Under the pieces are notes generated by a model. The model searched no databases, was not told the origin of the DNA, and was given only the letters and a program-made list of their open reading frames with translations. Positions 7,254 through 14,249 of a stretch of 64,000 nt of DNA are shown here, piece after piece; the stretch's first letter is position 1, and every line of letters begins with the position of its first letter. A program made the translations under genes and the position numbers. This DNA is from Ignavibacteria bacterium (GTDB lineage: Bacteria > Bacteroidota > Ignavibacteria > SZUA-365): contig PKTF01000405.1 of assembly GCA_002869275.1 (NCBI GenBank), positions 22,808 through 86,807 on the forward strand, in the 5' to 3' direction.

Positions 7254-7964
7254 TTATATCGCAGCATGAAACAGAAACACACCTGCGAGAACGAAAGCTG
7301 CCAGCACGGTCCAGAAGACGAGTGTCCGGGTAAATGCCGTTCCGTAGGACAGTCCGTGCAGCATAAAGGGCCGCGGAAGCAGCACCATGCTCCACAGCAG
7401 CGCGAGCAGGTCTATTCCGACGAAGCTCCAGTACGGCAGGGGCTGTGTTTGCCATGCCGGTGGATTCGTAGAAAACAGCAGAACTCCGAAGATCCCGAGC
7501 TGCAGCGGTAATACAATGACAGACGTCCACAGAAGCGGTGAGATTCCAAACGCGGCGTACGCTCCCGTCTGTCGAAAACGAAGCCGTGCGCCGGTACTCA
7601 CGCGAAACACCGACCGCAGAGCGGCAGTGGCCGCAACAAAAGCCAACAGCCCGAATACAGGTCCGGCGGCGACGCAGGCAAGGAGCACGTAGCTGAACGG
7701 TGTATCAGTGTCTCCAACACGGGCGGCTGCAAGGACCAGGGCGACAAGAACCGGTCCCGTCAGAGCGAACAGCAGGAACGTATAATTTTTCTGCTCGCTA
7801 CGCGCGATTCTCAGAAACGTCGTTTCCGGGGATTCAATGATACCCCACAGCGTGGAAAACAGGTTTAGTGCCGGGACGCGATCGCGTATGTATGCTCCGC
7901 AGCTGCCGCAGCGAAGGTCGAGGACAGAGCTTTCAGCTCCACATGACGGACACCGGCGCGTCAC
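7254..7964 (-). CDS. Yip1-like membrane protein with N-terminal zinc ribbon
   Basis: CPSCG...CGSCG then 'WGIIESPETTFLRI' and about 5 hydrophobic segments. Confidence 0.75.
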   Translation of the reverse strand: MTRRCPSCGAESSVLDLRCGSCGAYIRDRVPALNLFSTLWGIIESPETTFLRIARSEQKNYTFLLFALTGPVLVALVLAAARVGDTDTPFSYVLLACVAAGPVFGLLAFVAATAALRSVFRVSTGARLRFRQTGAYAAFGISPLLWTSVIVLPLQLGIFGVLLFSTNPPAWQTQPLPYWSFVGIDLLALLWSMVLLPRPFMLHGLSYGTAFTRTLVFWTVLAAFVLAGVFLFHAAI

Positions 7965-7991: not shown

Positions 7992-10900
7992 CTATTTACC
8001 GTGACATTGCTTGTACTTCTTGCCGCTGCCACAGGGACAGGGATCATTTCGACCGGGTCTCTTCTCCACACGGACAGGTTGACGTTTGCCTGCGGTTGCC
8101 TCCTGGGGCGCTTCGAGACCGGGAGCCGCTTCCTTATTGGCCTGGTATCCCATTCCAGTCGAGGACTGATGTGAGGTAACCAGTTCGCTGACGCTCGGTC
8201 CGGTCGGCTGTGCAGGGAGATCTTCCTGTACCGGGTAGAGTCGGAAGACCATGCCCAGGACTTCGCGATTAATCATACCAAGCATCTGTACGAACAGCTC
8301 GAATGCTTCGCGTTTGTATTCGATGAGCGGATCTTTCTGGCCATAGGCGCGCATATGGATACCCTCTTTGAGGTCGTCCATCTCGCGCAGATGCTCCTTC
8401 CAACGCATATCGATCACCTGGAGGAGAGCCATGCGCATGAGTGCGTTCATGACATCCGATCCGAGGTCCTCTTCCTTGCGACGGAGGAAATCGAAGGAGG
8501 ACTTGACGATCTGCTCCTTCAGTTCGGGAGCCCCGGAGACACTCACACGCTCCTTATCGAGGTCGAGATCGATCACGAGGTTACGCCGCAGTTCCTCGCG
8601 CAGGCCGTCCATATCACCGCTTTCCCAATGCTGATCGGCGAGCTCCTCGACGTACTGATCGACCATCTCGTAGATTTCATCCTTGAGATTTTCACCGATA
8701 AGGGCCTGACGGCGACGAGCATAGATGACTGTGCGCTGCTGGTTCATGACGTCATCGTATTCCAGGAGGCGCTTACGAATGCCGAAGTTGTTTTCCTCCA
8801 CTTTTTTCTGCGCGCGCTCAACGGATTTGGTGATCATTGAATGGCTGATCACTTCCCCTTCCTCCACACCGAGCTTTGTCATGACTCCGGCGATGCGATC
8901 AGATTTGAAGAGCCGCATCAGGTCGTCTTCGAGGGAGAGGTAGAACCGAGTCATTCCGGGATCACCCTGGCGACCCGCGCGTCCGCGCAGCTGCCTGTCG
9001 ATACGGCGCGCTTCGTGCCGTTCCGTACCGAGAATAACGAGCCCCCCTGCTTCCTTCACACCCGGACCGAGCTTGATATCGGTACCGCGTCCCGCCATGT
9101 TGGTGGCGATTGTCACGGCACCCGGGAGGCCGGCGTTGGCGACAATTTCCGCCTCATGGCGGTGCTGCTTCGCATTGAGAACATTGTGAGGAACGCCACG
9201 GCGCTTCAGCATACGGGAGAGTGTTTCGGACACTTCCACGTTCGTTGTACCGACGAGAGTCGGCTGTCTGTTCTCACGGCATTCCTCGATGAAATCAATG
9301 ACCGCGTTGTATTTCTCACGCCTCGTCTTGTAAATGTGGTCTTCCTGATCGTCGCGGACGATGGGCCTGTTGGTCGGGATGACCACCACATCGAGTTTGT
9401 AGATTTCATAAAACTCACCGGCCTCGGTTTCCGCTGTACCGGTCATGCCGGCAAGCTTATTGTAGAGTCGGAAATAGTTCTGCAGAGTGATGGTAGCAAG
9501 CGTCTGCGTATCGCCCTCGACCTTGACGTTCTCCTTGCTCTCGATGGCCTGATGCAATCCTTCAGAGTAACGGCGTCCGGGAAGGATGCGTCCGGTGAAG
9601 GTATCGACAATCATCACCTTCCCTTCCTGCACCACATACTCGACATCCTTTTCGTACAGACAGTAGGCCTTGAGCAGCTGGTGGACGGTGTGGATGCGAT
9701 CACTGCGTTCGGCGTACACCTGCTGCAGCTTATCCTTTTCGCGCTGCAGTTCCTTCGGTTCAAGTCCCTGGCCCTCGAGGACACTCAGTTCGGTAGTGAT
9801 ATCCGGGAGAACGAAGAAATCCGCTTCATCCTTCGAAGGGGCGAGAAACTCTCTTCCCTTGTCGGTGAGATCGACGATATAGGTTTTTTCGTCGAGGGAG
9901 AAATACAGTTCCTCGATAATTTCCGGCATCCTGCGAGCGCTGTCGGCCCGGTAGATGTTTTCCGTCTTATGCATCAGTGTCTCATTTTCCGGATCACTGA
10001 GAATTTTCAGCAGACGCTTGTTTTTCGGAAGACCGCGCTGGGCCCGGTATATCAGAACCCCGGCTTCATCACGATTGCCATCTTTGAGCAGACGTTCGGC
10101 CTCTGCCAGGATCTTCGCGATGAAGGCATTCTGGGCGTTGACGATGCGGTCTACCCTGGGCTTCATTTCGTCGAACTTATGATCGGTGTTGCCGACCGGA
10201 CCGCTGATGATCAGCGGAGTACGTGCCTCATCGATGAGCACGGAATCGACTTCATCGACGATGGCATAGTTATGCGGCCGCTGCACCATGTCCTGCGGAT
10301 CGATAACCATGTTGTCGCGCAGGTAATCGAAGCCGAACTCGTTGTTGGTACCGTAGGTGATGTCCATGTTATAGATTTCACGACGTTCCTGCGGCGACAT
10401 CGTGTTCTGGATGCATCCGACGGTCAGCCCGTGAAACTCATAGACGGGCGACATCCATTCGCTGTCACGCTTTGCGAGGTAATCGTTGACGGTGACGAGA
10501 TGGACACCCTTCCCCGGCAGTGCGTTGAGGTAGACAGGAAGCGTCGCGACCAGCGTCTTTCCTTCACCCGTCGCCATTTCAGAAATTTTCCCCTGATGCA
10601 GGGTAATACCACCGATGAGCTGCACGTCGAACGGCACCATGTTCCAGACTGTTTTATTGTCCACAACGAGGTACTCATGGTCGACCAGGCGACGACAGGT
10701 TTCTTTCACGACGGCGAAGGCCTCGGGAAGGATTTCGTCGAGCACGTCCTCGATCGTATCCTTCAGTTCCTCCCGCAGTATTTTCTGCCGGTCGTGCAGG
10801 GCATCGCGGTTCGCCTGACCGGTATCCGTCTCGAGTTCGCGTGTGATGCCCACAATCTCTTCTTCGATCTCACGGGTTTCGTCGGCGATTCTTTTCTTGA

Positions 10901-11048
10901 ACGCCGCCGTTTTTTCGCGCAGTTCGTCATCAGTCAGCGAGGCATACTGTGCGAAATGCTCATTTATTTCATCGACGATGGGATAGAGATCCTTCAGATC
11001 GCGCTCATGCTTTCCACCGCCAAACACTTTCGATAAGATATTCAGCAT
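7992..11048 (-). CDS. secA: Preprotein translocase ATPase SecA
   Basis: MATGEGKT, DEVDSVLIDEARTPLIISG, QLRGRAGRQGDPG, C-terminal SEC-C motif GRNDPCPCGSGKKYKQCHG. Confidence 0.99.
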   Translation of the reverse strand: MLNILSKVFGGGKHERDLKDLYPIVDEINEHFAQYASLTDDELREKTAAFKKRIADETREIEEEIVGITRELETDTGQANRDALHDRQKILREELKDTIEDVLDEILPEAFAVVKETCRRLVDHEYLVVDNKTVWNMVPFDVQLIGGITLHQGKISEMATGEGKTLVATLPVYLNALPGKGVHLVTVNDYLAKRDSEWMSPVYEFHGLTVGCIQNTMSPQERREIYNMDITYGTNNEFGFDYLRDNMVIDPQDMVQRPHNYAIVDEVDSVLIDEARTPLIISGPVGNTDHKFDEMKPRVDRIVNAQNAFIAKILAEAERLLKDGNRDEAGVLIYRAQRGLPKNKRLLKILSDPENETLMHKTENIYRADSARRMPEIIEELYFSLDEKTYIVDLTDKGREFLAPSKDEADFFVLPDITTELSVLEGQGLEPKELQREKDKLQQVYAERSDRIHTVHQLLKAYCLYEKDVEYVVQEGKVMIVDTFTGRILPGRRYSEGLHQAIESKENVKVEGDTQTLATITLQNYFRLYNKLAGMTGTAETEAGEFYEIYKLDVVVIPTNRPIVRDDQEDHIYKTRREKYNAVIDFIEECRENRQPTLVGTTNVEVSETLSRMLKRRGVPHNVLNAKQHRHEAEIVANAGLPGAVTIATNMAGRGTDIKLGPGVKEAGGLVILGTERHEARRIDRQLRGRAGRQGDPGMTRFYLSLEDDLMRLFKSDRIAGVMTKLGVEEGEVISHSMITKSVERAQKKVEENNFGIRKRLLEYDDVMNQQRTVIYARRRQALIGENLKDEIYEMVDQYVEELADQHWESGDMDGLREELRRNLVIDLDLDKERVSVSGAPELKEQIVKSSFDFLRRKEEDLGSDVMNALMRMALLQVIDMRWKEHLREMDDLKEGIHMRAYGQKDPLIEYKREAFELFVQMLGMINREVLGMVFRLYPVQEDLPAQPTGPSVSELVTSHQSSTGMGYQANKEAAPGLEAPQEATAGKRQPVRVEKRPGRNDPCPCGSGKKYKQCHGK

Positions 11049-11090
11049 TGTTGTTCTTCTTTACCAATGTATGGGGAATTGTCGTACCGG

Positions 11091-11411
11091 TCAGGGTTGC
11101 CGCGTATGGGCGGCGGAAGGGGCCCTGATCGGGTGCGCGCTGCGCAGGAAGACGGATGTGTGTTCACGACGTGACGAGCCTGAGAGCAGCCGGATCTCCG
11201 GCAGCGCGTGCCTCTGTTTCACCTGTGTCGGCGCTGTGGAACAGGCCGGGTGATGCTTCCCCACCGTCCAGTTGATCTGCGCCCGCAGTGTCGGTGCGGC
11301 GGCCTCGAGAATATGCCGGATAACGCCCGCATCCGCGGATTGCAGGACCGCGGGATCCGCCTGAATGACGGCACTGCAGAACAGAGAAAACGTGAAGATG
11401 AAACCGGTCAT
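11091..11411 (-). CDS. Putative SecM-like secretion monitor (signal peptide + C-terminal IRAPS arrest-like motif), about 106 aa
   Basis: Co-oriented, 42 nt upstream of secA; N-terminus MTGFIFTFSLFCSAVIQA; C-terminus TSVFLRSAHPIRAPS; ATG 11411 chosen because ATG 11441 is only 2 nt from the predicted -10 box. Confidence 0.7.
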   Translation of the reverse strand: MTGFIFTFSLFCSAVIQADPAVLQSADAGVIRHILEAAAPTLRAQINWTVGKHHPACSTAPTQVKQRHALPEIRLLSGSSRREHTSVFLRSAHPIRAPSAAHTRQP

Positions 11412-11428
11412 GCCACAGATATTCCGTG

Positions 11429-11473
11429 TGAAATCAAGCATGTAAAGTACTTGATTTCATGTGGTGAATCAAG
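11429..11473 (-). promoter_or_regulatory. Putative promoter of the uORF-secA operon with an overlapping inverted repeat
   Basis: Minus strand TTGATT-17 nt-TACTTT (11472-11444); TGAAATCAAG-N11-CTTGATTTCA at 11429-11459. Confidence 0.6.
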
Positions 11474-11479
11474 ATCACG

Positions 11480-12805
11480 TCAGGGCAGAATCCCGGCCCG
11501 GCGCATCCCGTTGGCCATGCGATGTGTCGCGAGATCATCCCATTCGTAATGATGGCGGGCATCGGAGATGAATTGCAGACGGCCGTAGCTCGATGGTGCG
11601 TTTTCACGGTAGCCGCGAGAAGTCGAAGAAATTGATACCCAGTGCAGATTGGCGGGATAGTCGACGTCATGGTAGGTACATGCGAAGCCGGCACCGGGCA
11701 AAGCGGTCTCATTTTCGAATAATGGACGCGGCAGACGGATACGGAAGACGAATTCGTTAAAGCGATCGGGCTTCGTGCTGACGGATACATCCACGAGGTG
11801 AGCGTACTGTTCGGCGAGTTTTTTTCCTTCCAGCTCGACGACAGGCGTCCGCTCTTCGCCGTCTCCCATAAAGACATTGAGAATCAGCTGGGCATTCGGC
11901 GAAAAATCCTGCTCATCACCACCCGGACGTACACGCGTTTTCCGGCTGAGATCGAAATGCAGCGAGAGGACATCCGCGGAATCCTTCTCCGGAGCGTATA
12001 ACAGGCGATCATCATTGACGGTGACGGTGAAATACACGAAGCTGCTGTCATATTCGGCGGAGCAGAACAGGCTGCAGTCTTCGGGACCGTGCCAGCTGCT
12101 CCCTCCTTTTACGATCATGAGCGCGGTCGAGTCTCCGATCTCGCGCTGAAGCGCGGCAGGGATGTCATCACCGGCCCTGAATACCGGCAAGGTGTAATAC
12201 TTTTGCCGCAGAAAACTGCGACTGCTGTTCGTGCCGTAGAAATGATCCTCAGAAACATGCGAGTCGCCGTCATAGCTGTGTTCATATCCCACGGCTGTTT
12301 CCCTTCCTCTGTAGGCCATCCTTTCCGTCGTCCACTGGTATATCCTGCGGAAAATATTGTCTCGGACGGTATATCCCGTTATACGCCACCCAAATTCACC
12401 GGTCTTTTCTGTGACGAAAGCCGTTCCTCGTTCGATGGAAAATCCAACCTCTATCGCTTCGAATACGAAGCTGCGTTCCAGTGACTGGACGAGTTCGAAT
12501 TCAGCTCCGGCATTCTGGAAAAAATGAACATTCAGCCTTCGGCTGCGGCTGTTTTCCTCCCGGGTAGAGAGGACGACATCCATACCGTCATCCCCCGTAT
12601 AATCGCCGACATCGTACCCGTAGATTTTGGACTTCGGCGGGAGTTTTGATAGTATGGACTGGATTTTATCAGGCGAAAAAATACGCTGCAGCGTCGCCGA
12701 AAAGCCCGCGATCTCGAGGCTGTCCGCCAGTGGGACCCCGGCTTTACACGCAGCCTGCGGCAGATACAGAGCGAAAAGGAACAGAACAATGGCGAGCCAT
12801 CGCAT
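11480..12805 (-). CDS. Secreted hypothetical protein with an FG-GAP-like motif and a C-terminal CBM9/DOMON-like domain
   Basis: Signal peptide MRWLAIVLFLFALYLPQAACKA (alternative starts 12838/12859); GDYTGDDGMDVVL; YDSSFVYFTVTVNDD...LHFD...FRIRLP...YHDVD. Confidence 0.7.
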   Translation of the reverse strand: MRWLAIVLFLFALYLPQAACKAGVPLADSLEIAGFSATLQRIFSPDKIQSILSKLPPKSKIYGYDVGDYTGDDGMDVVLSTREENSRSRRLNVHFFQNAGAEFELVQSLERSFVFEAIEVGFSIERGTAFVTEKTGEFGWRITGYTVRDNIFRRIYQWTTERMAYRGRETAVGYEHSYDGDSHVSEDHFYGTNSSRSFLRQKYYTLPVFRAGDDIPAALQREIGDSTALMIVKGGSSWHGPEDCSLFCSAEYDSSFVYFTVTVNDDRLLYAPEKDSADVLSLHFDLSRKTRVRPGGDEQDFSPNAQLILNVFMGDGEERTPVVELEGKKLAEQYAHLVDVSVSTKPDRFNEFVFRIRLPRPLFENETALPGAGFACTYHDVDYPANLHWVSISSTSRGYRENAPSSYGRLQFISDARHHYEWDDLATHRMANGMRRAGILP

Positions 12806-14249
12806 ACCGAGCCGCGGGTGGGCTGTTATCACCTTCATTGGTTTTCTTTCTGTCGTCATTTCATCTTCGGGTGTTGCACAGCAGAGCACGGCGCTTTCCG
12901 TCCTCACGACGGCTATCGACAAGGAAGTGGAGTCCGACCTCTTTGACGGAGCGATAGCAGCCGTGGTGGTTCGGGACTGTCTCACCGACCGTGTACTGTA
13001 TGAGCAGCATGCAGACCTGCTTCTCAGGCCCGCATCAAACGCGAAACTCTTTACATCCGCGGCTGCGTTCCTTTCGCTTCCACGCACGTATTCCATGGAA
13101 ACCACTGCCGGAGTTCTCGACAGCGGTCGTCGAGTTCTCCGGTGTTCCGGTGGAGCGGATCCGCTTCTGACCGTGCAAGATATTCAAAAACTCGCTGAAA
13201 TCGCAGCTCCGACAATCGATTCCACCCTTGACACTCTGTATATGGACGCCTCGCTATTGAACGACAATTTCTACGGCAGCGGCTGGATGTGGGATGACGA
13301 ATCGGACCCCTTCATGCCCTTCCTCAATGCATTCAGCCTGGAGGGAAACAGCATTCGAATCTCGATGAAATCTCCGTCGAAACGTGGCTTGCCTGTTGAA
13401 GTTAGCGTATTTCCATCAAGCAATATGATCACAGTCGAAAATATGCTGCTCAGTGGACGGCGTACGAGGATCGATGTCACAAAGCAACCGCGCAGCAACA
13501 ACATCGTGCTGAGAGGCACGCTGGCGGCGGGAAAACGGCGAACGAACACTGTCAGCATGTGGCGACCACAGGATATCGTGGCGGAGATGCTCCTCGATCA
13601 GCTGCGACAGAACGGAATCAACGTCGACAGTACCGTCGTCGTCCACAGCGAGGGATGTGGCGTTCCGCTCGCCCTCCACTCCGTCGGGCATGACCTCAAA
13701 GAAGTGCTTGCGGAAATGAATAAGGAGAGTGATAATCTCTGCGCGGAAATGGCGCTGCGTCACCTGGCCGTCTTTCGTGGAGCGAAATCCGGAGTACGGG
13801 ATAAGGACGGGCTGGCTGCGATGACGTCTGTCCTGGCGCGGAACGGACTGGATCTGGACGGCTTGCATCTGAAGGACGGTTCGGGAATATCCTTTTACAA
13901 CCTCGTAACGGCTCGTTGTATCTCAGATCTGCTTTCCATGATGAGCAGGCATAAGGATTTTCAGTTGTACGCCGCCACACTCGCCGTGGGTGGAAGAAGC
14001 GGTACGCTAGAAGGACGGATGAAGGACTTATCGAAGGGTCAAATGTTCTGGGGAAAGACGGGGACCATAAGCGGTGTCAGCGCGCTTTCGGGGTATGCGC
14101 AAGCGCCACAGGGACGCCTGGTGAGCGTGGTCATGCTGATGCAGAATTTCGCGGGCAAACATAAACCCTACCGCGAAGTTCAGGACAGGATTGTGCGGCA
14201 CTGCATCACGTACAGTGCCGCACTGAAATCTGTCAGGAAGCCTCAATAA
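12789..14249 (+). CDS. dacB: D-alanyl-D-alanine carboxypeptidase/endopeptidase (PBP4, peptidase S13)
   Basis: PASNAK (SxxK), SDN (SxN), KTGT, DGSG motifs; signal peptide from ATG 12789. Confidence 0.93.
   Translation: MASHRIPSRGWAVITFIGFLSVVISSSGVAQQSTALSVLTTAIDKEVESDLFDGAIAAVVVRDCLTDRVLYEQHADLLLRPASNAKLFTSAAAFLSLPRTYSMETTAGVLDSGRRVLRCSGGADPLLTVQDIQKLAEIAAPTIDSTLDTLYMDASLLNDNFYGSGWMWDDESDPFMPFLNAFSLEGNSIRISMKSPSKRGLPVEVSVFPSSNMITVENMLLSGRRTRIDVTKQPRSNNIVLRGTLAAGKRRTNTVSMWRPQDIVAEMLLDQLRQNGINVDSTVVVHSEGCGVPLALHSVGHDLKEVLAEMNKESDNLCAEMALRHLAVFRGAKSGVRDKDGLAAMTSVLARNGLDLDGLHLKDGSGISFYNLVTARCISDLLSMMSRHKDFQLYAATLAVGGRSGTLEGRMKDLSKGQMFWGKTGTISGVSALSGYAQAPQGRLVSVVMLMQNFAGKHKPYREVQDRIVRHCITYSAALKSVRKPQ

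Follow-up and report, generated by a model that had tools for sequence, protein, structure and literature searches.

Directly upstream of secA, an uncultured Ignavibacteria bacterium (NCBI GenBank assembly GCA_002869275.1) carries a 106-codon open reading frame (ORF) that is almost certainly a real, selected small gene. Its product is probably a RAPP-like arrest peptide of the ApcA type (RAP|x), which, by analogy with the characterized peptides, would monitor protein export and control secA. Arrest at the RAP|x position taken by itself is likely. The upstream ORF (uORF) lies on the minus strand of the window, the stretch of 64,000 nucleotides that was analyzed (contig PKTF01000405.1, positions 22,808 to 86,807), and all positions given below are those of the window unless another contig is named.

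A small gene conserved upstream of secA

As evident from the ORF listing and from the sequence, the uORF runs from an ATG at 11411 to a TGA at 11091-11093, and its 106-residue product starts with MTGFIFTFSLFCSAVIQADP and ends with EHTSVFLRSAHPIRAPSAAHTRQP. H-P-I-R-A-P-S forms residues 93-99, with IRAPS encoded at 11115-11129. An initial annotation of the window had described an ORF of about 106 residues that ends 42 nt before secA on the same strand, with IRAPS at these positions, and both statements were borne out. The downstream gene (7992-11048, minus strand, 1018 residues) matched five Pfam SecA domains, SecA_DEAD with an E value of 7e-122. The uORF product was without a match to any Pfam or NCBIfam family. 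An alternative in-frame ATG at 11441, which would lengthen the peptide to 116 residues, was rejected as the start, because the relatives start with MTGF and the ATG following the -7-like box is out of frame (29 nt) in loci L003 and L016. The nearest metagenomic relative, P0008, also has an N-terminal extension from an upstream ATG.

A six-frame search of 40 relatives returned homologues with E values of 1e-17 to 2e-5 in three genera and weaker matches elsewhere; the related contigs all come from metagenome-assembled genomes. At all examined homologue loci, the match was located immediately upstream of secA and on the same strand. When the secA upstream regions of another 20 genomes were inspected, diverged members came to light in two additional genera and in two additional families of the order. 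A family profile (A2) was built from 21 aligned sequences and searched in 30 species genomes of the order. The uORF stood directly upstream of secA in 22 of these, 21 being recognized by the hidden Markov model and one, G014, by synteny. In G014 (L036, bases 521-958), the uORF (MTGIVFALS...GRIRAPD) has no stop before secA and stays open for at least 146 codons across the secA start, which is why the profile missed it. The sequence behind the motif would thus be free to change even to this extent, although the missing stop may be an assembly error. Among the eight genomes not counted, G007, G026, and G029 (73, 74, and 70% complete) lacked a secA N-terminus, and in G025 the secA match began at residue 26. 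The secA upstream sequence was read for G001, G018, G024, and G027, and the uORF was missing from it.

Profile A2 found no match in the 371 other genomes of the class. In a sample of 401 genomes of the phylum, the window's own genome was the sole match (0 of 400 others), and a synteny check found no such ORF before secA in any of 10 class-level genomes outside the order. As no sequence homologue was seen outside the order, the uORFs appear, judged by sequence, to be a homology group separate from the published ones. A filter-free profile search of 1.84 billion representative proteins yielded 21 clusters at E ≤ 0.001, and a word-indexed search of 5.8 billion proteins yielded 13 clusters. Family members that are named in databases are called "hypothetical protein." The relatives thus presented what the initial annotation had predicted for them, a conserved N-terminus, a variable middle, and a C-terminal RAP-type motif, and they retained both ORF and motif upstream of secA. 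Because the ORF, its place before secA, and its motif are conserved across genera, the uORF is beyond chance.

Three zones under different selection were discerned within three genera. The mean ratio of nonsynonymous to synonymous differences (pN/pS) was 0.27, 0.18, and 0.56 for residues 1-40; 0.94, 0.83, and 0.90, i.e. near-neutral, for residues 41-90; and 0.29, 0.26, and 0.47 for residues 91-99. With pS values of 0.44-0.73 within genera, synonymous sites are near saturation, and the ratios are therefore qualitative. In the 21 orthologues, the motif arginine is written with six codons of both codon families (CGC 10, AGG 4, CGT 3, CGA 2, CGG 1, and AGA 1), showing that selection acts on the peptide; the motif isoleucine is written with three codons, alanine with four, and proline with three. 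The spacer measured 45-57 codons in 21 of 21 sequences, and its sequence drifts. A low-complexity linker had been noted initially. The linker is there, but "fast-evolving and unstructured" fits it better than "low-complexity." AlphaFold2, run with 33 sequences, placed helices at residues 3-17 (block pLDDT, the predicted local distance difference test score, 88/79), 22-25, and 28-38 and coil at residues 39-106. Overall, the mean pLDDT was 64 and the predicted template modeling score (pTM) 0.26, the spacer reached a pLDDT of 52-57, and no folded domain was predicted. The N-terminus and the motif are in one frame in all members, with no frameshift. Both other spacer frames are often stop-free (in 9 and 15 of 21 loci), so frame maintenance was not used as an argument. 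A conserved N-terminus and a very small invariant core that keep their distance while spacer and tail are free to vary form the layout expected of a monitoring arrest peptide and are hard to reconcile with a folded protein.

The R-[AG]-P core and the N-terminal segment

All 38 unique sequences from loci and databases contained [IV]-R-[AG]-P-[STAD], as RAPS (17), RAPA (9), RAPT (4), RGPT (4), RGPD (3), or RAPD (1). The R and P of the motif were present in 21 of 21 aligned sequences, and [RH]-P-I directly before the core is conserved. The position of the motif is fixed from the N-terminus and not from the C-terminus. Its proline occurs at residue 93-105 (exactly 98 in 18 of 38), about 75-87 residues beyond the end of the hydrophobic segment near residue 18, and is followed by a tail of unconserved sequence. 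The tail has 2-16 residues, 3 being the commonest number (22 of 38), and at least 41 in G014.

In the RAPP and RAPG peptides ApdA, ApdP, and ApcA, stalling is reported to occur with R-A-P on the P-site tRNA and the tRNA of the fourth residue in the A site (PMC12992588, PMC10951233). By analogy, Pro98 would be in the P site and Ser99 in the A site. The A-site residues described as permissive for ApcA arrest are P, C, N, T, S, G, D, and A, and nearly the same residues are ranked highest for ApdP (PMC7897499). The natural fourth residues S, T, A, and D all belong to the ApcA set, and this accord between the family's sequences and published mutagenesis appears to be the most telling independent agreement.

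The proteome of the window's genome, G000, was analyzed for a bias against such words. A crude gene set of 2826 non-overlapping ORFs of at least 120 residues (1.14 million residues) contained RAP 139 times versus 292 expected from composition and RGP 123 times versus 263. All 48,778 four-residue words expected at least 8 times were ranked by depletion, and RGPP came out as the 20th most depleted (1 observed, 11.9 expected) and RAGP as the 24th (2 versus 22.8). RAPT was positioned at 0.3%, RAPP at 0.7%, RGPT at 1.0%, RAPS at 6%, RAPD at 8%, and RAPA at 13.7% of the ranking, and the control words KAPS, QAPS, RPAS, and RSPS were positioned at 35, 56, 78, and 95%. Most of the depletion is already seen at the tripeptide level; for RAPS, the Markov expectation was 10.0 and 9 were observed. 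The depletion agrees with a reported avoidance of translation-impeding RAPP-like words (PMC12992588) and, as circumstantial evidence, suggests that R-[AG]-P is costly on the ribosome of the G000 organism as well.

The same genome was screened, crudely, for small ORFs that combine a hydrophobic start with R[AG]P-x at the C-terminus. There were 17 raw hits, 3 of them free of overlap with longer ORFs, and the secA uORF was the only one preceding a Sec gene. The sole other hit with a downstream gene was a 100-residue ORF on contig C254 (3301-3603, minus strand) with a lipoprotein-like N-terminus and the C-terminus ...ARAPGEE, located 9 nt before a 227-residue ORF with a hydrophobic N-terminus; this may be chance. 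A separate observation concerns the RNA around the core. In the window (11091-11135, minus strand) and in L006, base pairing is possible between the I-R codons (ATCAGGG) and CCCTGA, the final codon with the stop, and would give a hairpin that spans the 8-residue tail. These two alone end in Pro-stop, both with Pro-TGA and an AGG arginine codon, and the hairpin does not occur in the other members.

At the other end of the peptide, the first 16-19 residues were uncharged and mostly hydrophobic in 37 of 37 unique sequences, and the first charged residue was D or E in 34. The remainder of the peptide had a net charge of zero or above in 35 of the 37 and was positive in 33. The N-terminal segment is presumed to be an export or membrane-targeting signal, whether a cleavable signal, a signal anchor, or an N-out segment.

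Proposed mechanism and alternative explanations

We infer stalling at the core, its dependence on export, and a link to secA translation, which would be connected as follows. Peptidyl-RAP-tRNA ending at Pro98 would occupy the P site with Ser-tRNA (Thr, Ala, or Asp in relatives) in the A site, and peptide-bond formation would be slowed as at RAP|G of the ApcA type. The hydrophobic N-terminal segment would already be out of the ribosome, and its engagement by Sec would pull on the chain and release the stall. When export capacity is short, the stall would last and translation of secA, 42 nt downstream, would be raised, probably through an unfolded secA initiation region. That the stall raises secA translation is the least supported step of this mechanism.

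Of 21 orthologous loci, 19 had a promoter-like element, TTG...TAnnTT, 19-30 nt upstream of the uORF start codon. In two genomes without the uORF, G001 (L032) and G018 (L033), it was kept 30 and 38 nt before the secA ATG. Because the element was kept before secA where the uORF had been lost, a single promoter appears to serve both uORF and secA, and the comparison points to at least two independent excisions of the uORF within genera that otherwise carry it. For the window, a promoter upstream of the uORF had been predicted in the initial annotation. Generic sigma-70 scanning did not reproduce it, the combined search of 10800-11800 for sigma-70 promoters and intrinsic terminators giving no minus-strand site, but the TTG...TAnnTT element is found at 11442-11472. 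Promoters of Bacteroidota differ from the generic sigma-70 type and follow a -33/-7 consensus; for this reason the negative scan was not counted against a promoter.

Folding predictions for 20 loci addressed the secA start. In L034, L007, L017, and L038, the stop-codon region was predicted to pair with the Shine-Dalgarno sequence (SD) and AUG of secA. In a downstream-only model, from which all RNA behind the leading edge of the ribosome was removed, the mean cost of opening the secA start was 8.3 kcal/mol without a ribosome versus 6.7 kcal/mol with a ribosome at RAP; with the ribosome 45 or 90 nt further upstream it was 8.4 and 8.1 kcal/mol. The minimum free energy (MFE) structures of the 20 loci shared no common fold. 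The model suggests a weak trend toward unmasking of the secA start that would be specific to the RAP position, with a mean effect of 1.6 kcal/mol and no conserved hairpin.

Several observations weigh against an export monitor that acts by arrest. In none of the 37 unique sequences does a Lys or Arg precede the hydrophobic core. Signal peptides obey the (-3,-1) rule at their cleavage sites, and a site of this type before the acidic residue was recognized in just 24 of the 37, the window among them. The conservation of the 40-residue N-terminal domain, moreover, exceeds that of ordinary signal peptides and hints that the domain does something else instead of, or besides, targeting. That the uORF is dispensable is seen from its clean absence in G001, which is 100% complete and of the same genus, in G018, and in both genomes of family f3 (L039 and L046). 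When a 30-nt footprint at Pro98 was forced open, a gain of at least 3.4 kcal/mol was predicted for 6 of 20 loci and a gain of about zero or below for the other 14, the window coming out at -0.4 kcal/mol; in the downstream-only model, just 4 of 20 loci gained at least 2 kcal/mol, with 1.9 kcal/mol for the window. The mechanism solved for RAPP is described as requiring the secondary amine of an A-site proline, other residues being expected to react faster (PMC10951233), and RAPG could not substitute for RAPP or RAGP in the ApdP or SecM contexts (PMC12992588). If arrest occurs here, it would thus need the upstream context ([RH]-P-I), could be weak, and may also be specific to the ribosome of this lineage.

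Some of these points, together with the selection data, bear on what else the uORF might be. Its product could be a small exported or membrane-anchored protein, e.g. a Sec-associated factor, in which P-I-R-A-P-S serves as a binding, processing, or sorting motif. Indeed, a mere signal would not usually be conserved as strongly as the first 40 residues are (pN/pS 0.18-0.56), gene finders recognize the gene and database entries list it as "hypothetical protein," and linkage to secA would suit a Sec partner too. Such a protein is nonetheless unlikely, given that the middle half evolves near-neutrally (pN/pS 0.83-0.94) and has no predicted fold (pTM 0.26) and that, outside the N-terminus, R and P are the only invariant residues, in a tripeptide that also forms the core of known arrest peptides. 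A tripeptide followed by anything from 2 to more than 41 residues, and spaced from the N-terminus (93-105) but not from the C-terminus, also speaks against it. We regard it as very unlikely that the ORF is untranslated and that its conservation reflects an operator, a structured 5'-untranslated region, or another DNA or RNA element of the secA leader. The region is GC-rich and open frames are common in it, as the stop-free alternative spacer frames (9 and 15 of 21 loci) illustrate, and the window has a local hairpin around the motif. Against this stand synonymous turnover at saturation (pS 0.44-0.73) with the amino acids kept, an arginine that switches between CGN and AGR, a single frame throughout all members, and the lack of a common MFE fold in the 20 loci.

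The same motif evidence would apply to a leader peptide whose translation is paused or arrested at RAP, with an effect on secA but no monitoring of secretion; the pause could be constitutive and set the rate of secA translation or the fate of the mRNA, or another cue could trigger it. The atypical signal, with no basic residue and a cleavage-type site in just 24 of 37 sequences, would agree with such a leader, and RAPP and RGPP uORFs have been reported before genes unrelated to secretion (PMC12992588). What makes it improbable is that no part of the peptide is better conserved than the hydrophobic N-terminus, which is held about 80 residues from the stall site; only a mechanism in which the N-terminus is read while the ribosome is at RAP would need this near-constant distance. 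In addition, the downstream gene encodes the export ATPase in 22 of 22 uORF-bearing loci. Monitoring of export by an arrest peptide thus remains the preferred reading, and the features on which it draws are compiled in Table 1.

Table 1. Positions of the uORF, its parts, and the adjoining elements in the window
Feature	Positions	Strand	Basis or remark
Promoter-like element	11442..11472	-	TTG 11470-11472; TACTTTAC 11442-11449, 30 nt before uORF ATG
uORF, candidate arrest peptide/secretion monitor	11091..11411	-	106 codons + TGA; homologues before secA
Residues 1-18, MTGFIFTFSLFCSAVIQA, uncharged hydrophobic N-terminus	11358..11411	-	Presumed export/membrane-targeting signal; AlphaFold2 helix 3-17
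Residues 19-40, rest of conserved N-terminal domain (DPAVLQ...R..I.EA..P)	11292..11357	-	pN/pS, alignments, predicted helices
Residues 41-90, variable unstructured spacer	11142..11291	-	pN/pS, kept length, AlphaFold2 coil
Residues 93-99, H-P-I-R-A-P-S, proposed arrest core	11115..11135	-	Pro98 = 11118-11120; Ser99 = 11115-11117
Residues 100-106, AAHTRQP, non-conserved tail	11094..11114	-	Family sequence comparison
42-nt spacer, uORF stop to secA ATG	11049..11090	-	Sequence
secA, presumed regulated gene	7992..11048	-	Pfam SecA_DEAD, P-loop_SecA, SecA_SW, SecA_PP_bind, SEC-C

Upstream, the uORF is adjoined by a 541-residue ORF (11480-13105, minus strand; stop at 11480-11482) without a Pfam or NCBIfam match; the gap between the two measures 68 nt and holds the promoter-like element. 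Its C-terminal part (...YHDVDYPANLHWVS...RAGILP) is kept at the same place in most relatives of the order, those lacking the uORF included. Downstream of secA, a 236-residue ORF follows after 27 nt (7254-7964, minus strand); a zinc-ribbon-like CxxC...CxxC at its N-terminus is accompanied by several hydrophobic segments, and every Pfam match was under the curated cut-offs. A 731-residue open frame antisense within secA (8841-11036, plus strand) is most likely a GC-rich shadow ORF rather than a gene. In three metatranscriptome runs, 5-10% of the sampled words were present. A contig of 151 nt from run X2 covered, with one mismatch, 10942-11091, i.e. secA, the spacer, and the uORF stop, and none lay over the uORF; these are RNA libraries that possibly contain DNA, and neither transcription nor its absence follows from them.

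Comparison with known systems

The known class of arrest peptides that sense export capacity continues to grow, and with each independent family it becomes clearer which features are essential and which may vary. The uORF family offers a clean natural experiment of this kind. In its core, neither R nor P varies, A or G stands between them, and the residue that follows drifts among exactly the small ones permissive for ApcA. The spacer evolves neutrally at a fixed length, the presumed targeting segment is strongly conserved without carrying charge, and the uORF has been lost from close relatives in which secA kept its promoter-like element. It is possible, if rather doubtful, that we are dealing with a Sec monitor not yet described, belonging to one uncultured Bacteroidota order and combining an R-[AG]-P core, S/T/A/D in the A site, and a 40-residue sensor without a basic residue. 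If true, this would be a natural system showing RAP-type stalling without an A-site proline, and it may read a targeting step other than that read by SecM, e.g. direct capture by SecA or N-out insertion. It would also extend feedback control of secA to an uncultured lineage of Bacteroidota, where it would be predictable from sequence alone. For annotation, the family is a warning that a "hypothetical protein" before secA is probably a regulatory leader. Specialists may find two features of particular use, namely the A-site residue, which is never Pro or Gly, and the strongly conserved uncharged N-terminal domain.

The closest published survey is that of Fujiwara et al. 2024 (PMC10987492), in which 30,175 annotated GTDB r202 genomes were reported to be screened for uORFs of secA, secDF, and yidC with query motifs that included RAPS, RAPA, RAPT, RAPD, and RGPT. 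Thirty-five of the 38 members fall within that motif list; RGPD (3 of 38) is not in it. Since at least five members are known from NCBI, the screen could have caught them. The main text of the survey names no fitting group (no Ignavibacteria, Kapabacteria, Chlorobi, Rhodothermia, or SJA-28); the full list is in its supplements, where the family is possibly already tabulated, and its newness is to that extent uncertain. In a literature search, "arrest peptide" together with Ignavibacteria or Kapabacteria appeared nowhere among the matches listed, nor did PIRAPS or PIRAPT, and one match to PIRAPA concerned the Photorhabdus PirA/PirB toxins; none of the papers listed described the uORF family.

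The RQH family of the survey, RAPP-like arrest peptides found before secA/secDF, is described as comprising 19 order-level groups in nine phyla, eight of the groups upstream of secA, Bacteroidales included. The product discussed here resembles the RQH peptides, as described there, in several respects. It is encoded by a small unannotated uORF before secA, starts with a hydrophobic segment that more than 30 residues separate from a conserved R-A/G-P-x near the C-terminus, and has a patchy range confined to one order. uA_RQH_Bacteroidales_2 has R102-A-P104-G, near R96-A-P98-S here, and uA_RQH_Bacteroidales_1 is also reported. The fourth residue sets the family apart from RQH, being S, T, A, or D here and never P or G. 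Of the features given for monitoring substrates (PMC10987492, PMC7897499), three were found here: (i) the uORF of secA is small and unannotated, (iii) its C-terminus is conserved, and (iv) the spacer exceeds 30 residues. For feature ii, a secretion signal or transmembrane segment at the N-terminus, the candidate is the uncharged hydrophobic stretch of 16-19 residues. A further published group, uA_NSP-stop (PMC10987492), is likewise from Bacteroidota and consists of small peptides upstream of secA with a C-terminal proline-containing motif. By that account, those peptides end in N-S-P plus stop, with the stop codon in the A site, whereas 2 to more than 41 residues follow the proline here, and no member of the uORF family ends in NSP.

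ApcA of Actinobacteria (Sakiyama et al. 2021) shares with the family R-A-P plus a small non-proline residue; ApcA itself has RAPG, and its homologues mostly have Gly and occasionally Ser at this place (PMC7897499). RAP-S had been singled out in the initial annotation as an unusual variant; it is present in the window, but it is not unprecedented. Compared by description only, ApcA differs in preceding yidC2 instead of secA and in being predicted as an N-out/C-in or double transmembrane protein. The Ala of its RAPG is reported to be intolerant to substitution (PMC12992588), whereas Gly takes this place in 7 of 38 members here.

SecM has the same position directly upstream of secA. The spacer is 42 nt here versus 61 nt in Escherichia coli, and it was 29-93 nt in 20 orthologous loci. 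SecM has a hydrophobic N-terminal signal and the uORF product a presumed one; both have a core a few codons before the stop, with I-R-A in common, and the distance from signal to core is about 80 residues here versus a median of 71 reported for the short SecM class (PMC10987492). They differ in the core itself, RAP|S here versus RAG|P in SecM, and in that a hairpin masking the SD of secA, of the kind opened by the stalled ribosome in SecM, was not consistently predicted here. Homology to SecM (PF06558; SecM_small, PF10818) was considered and rejected, as there was no Pfam match at E ≤ 0.1, an hhalign probability of 0.45%, and a BLASTP E value of 29. A language-model neighbor score of 0.90 to SecM_small and SecM clusters lies within the chance range of the tool and is a lead only. 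The initial annotation had drawn an ungapped register between the C-terminus of the uORF product and SecM, for which residues 150-166 of E. coli K-12 SecM served as the reference here. In the window this register holds, with 6 of 17 identities (T, V, A, I, R, and A) plus W/F and I/L, but the extra matches are not conserved in the family. Among the 21 members, I, R, and A recur in 19, 21, and 19 and the Ala three residues earlier in 9, whereas T, V, and the W position match in 2, 2, and 1; these rare matches are ascribed to chance. The SecM arrest sequence FxxxxWIxxxxGIRAGP, in which Pro takes the A site, is not kept, F150, W155, I156, G161, G165, and P166 being matched by 2, 1, 2, 0, 0, and 0 of the 21 members. 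As far as sequence comparison tells, the uORF is thus a putative functional analogue of SecM and not its homologue.

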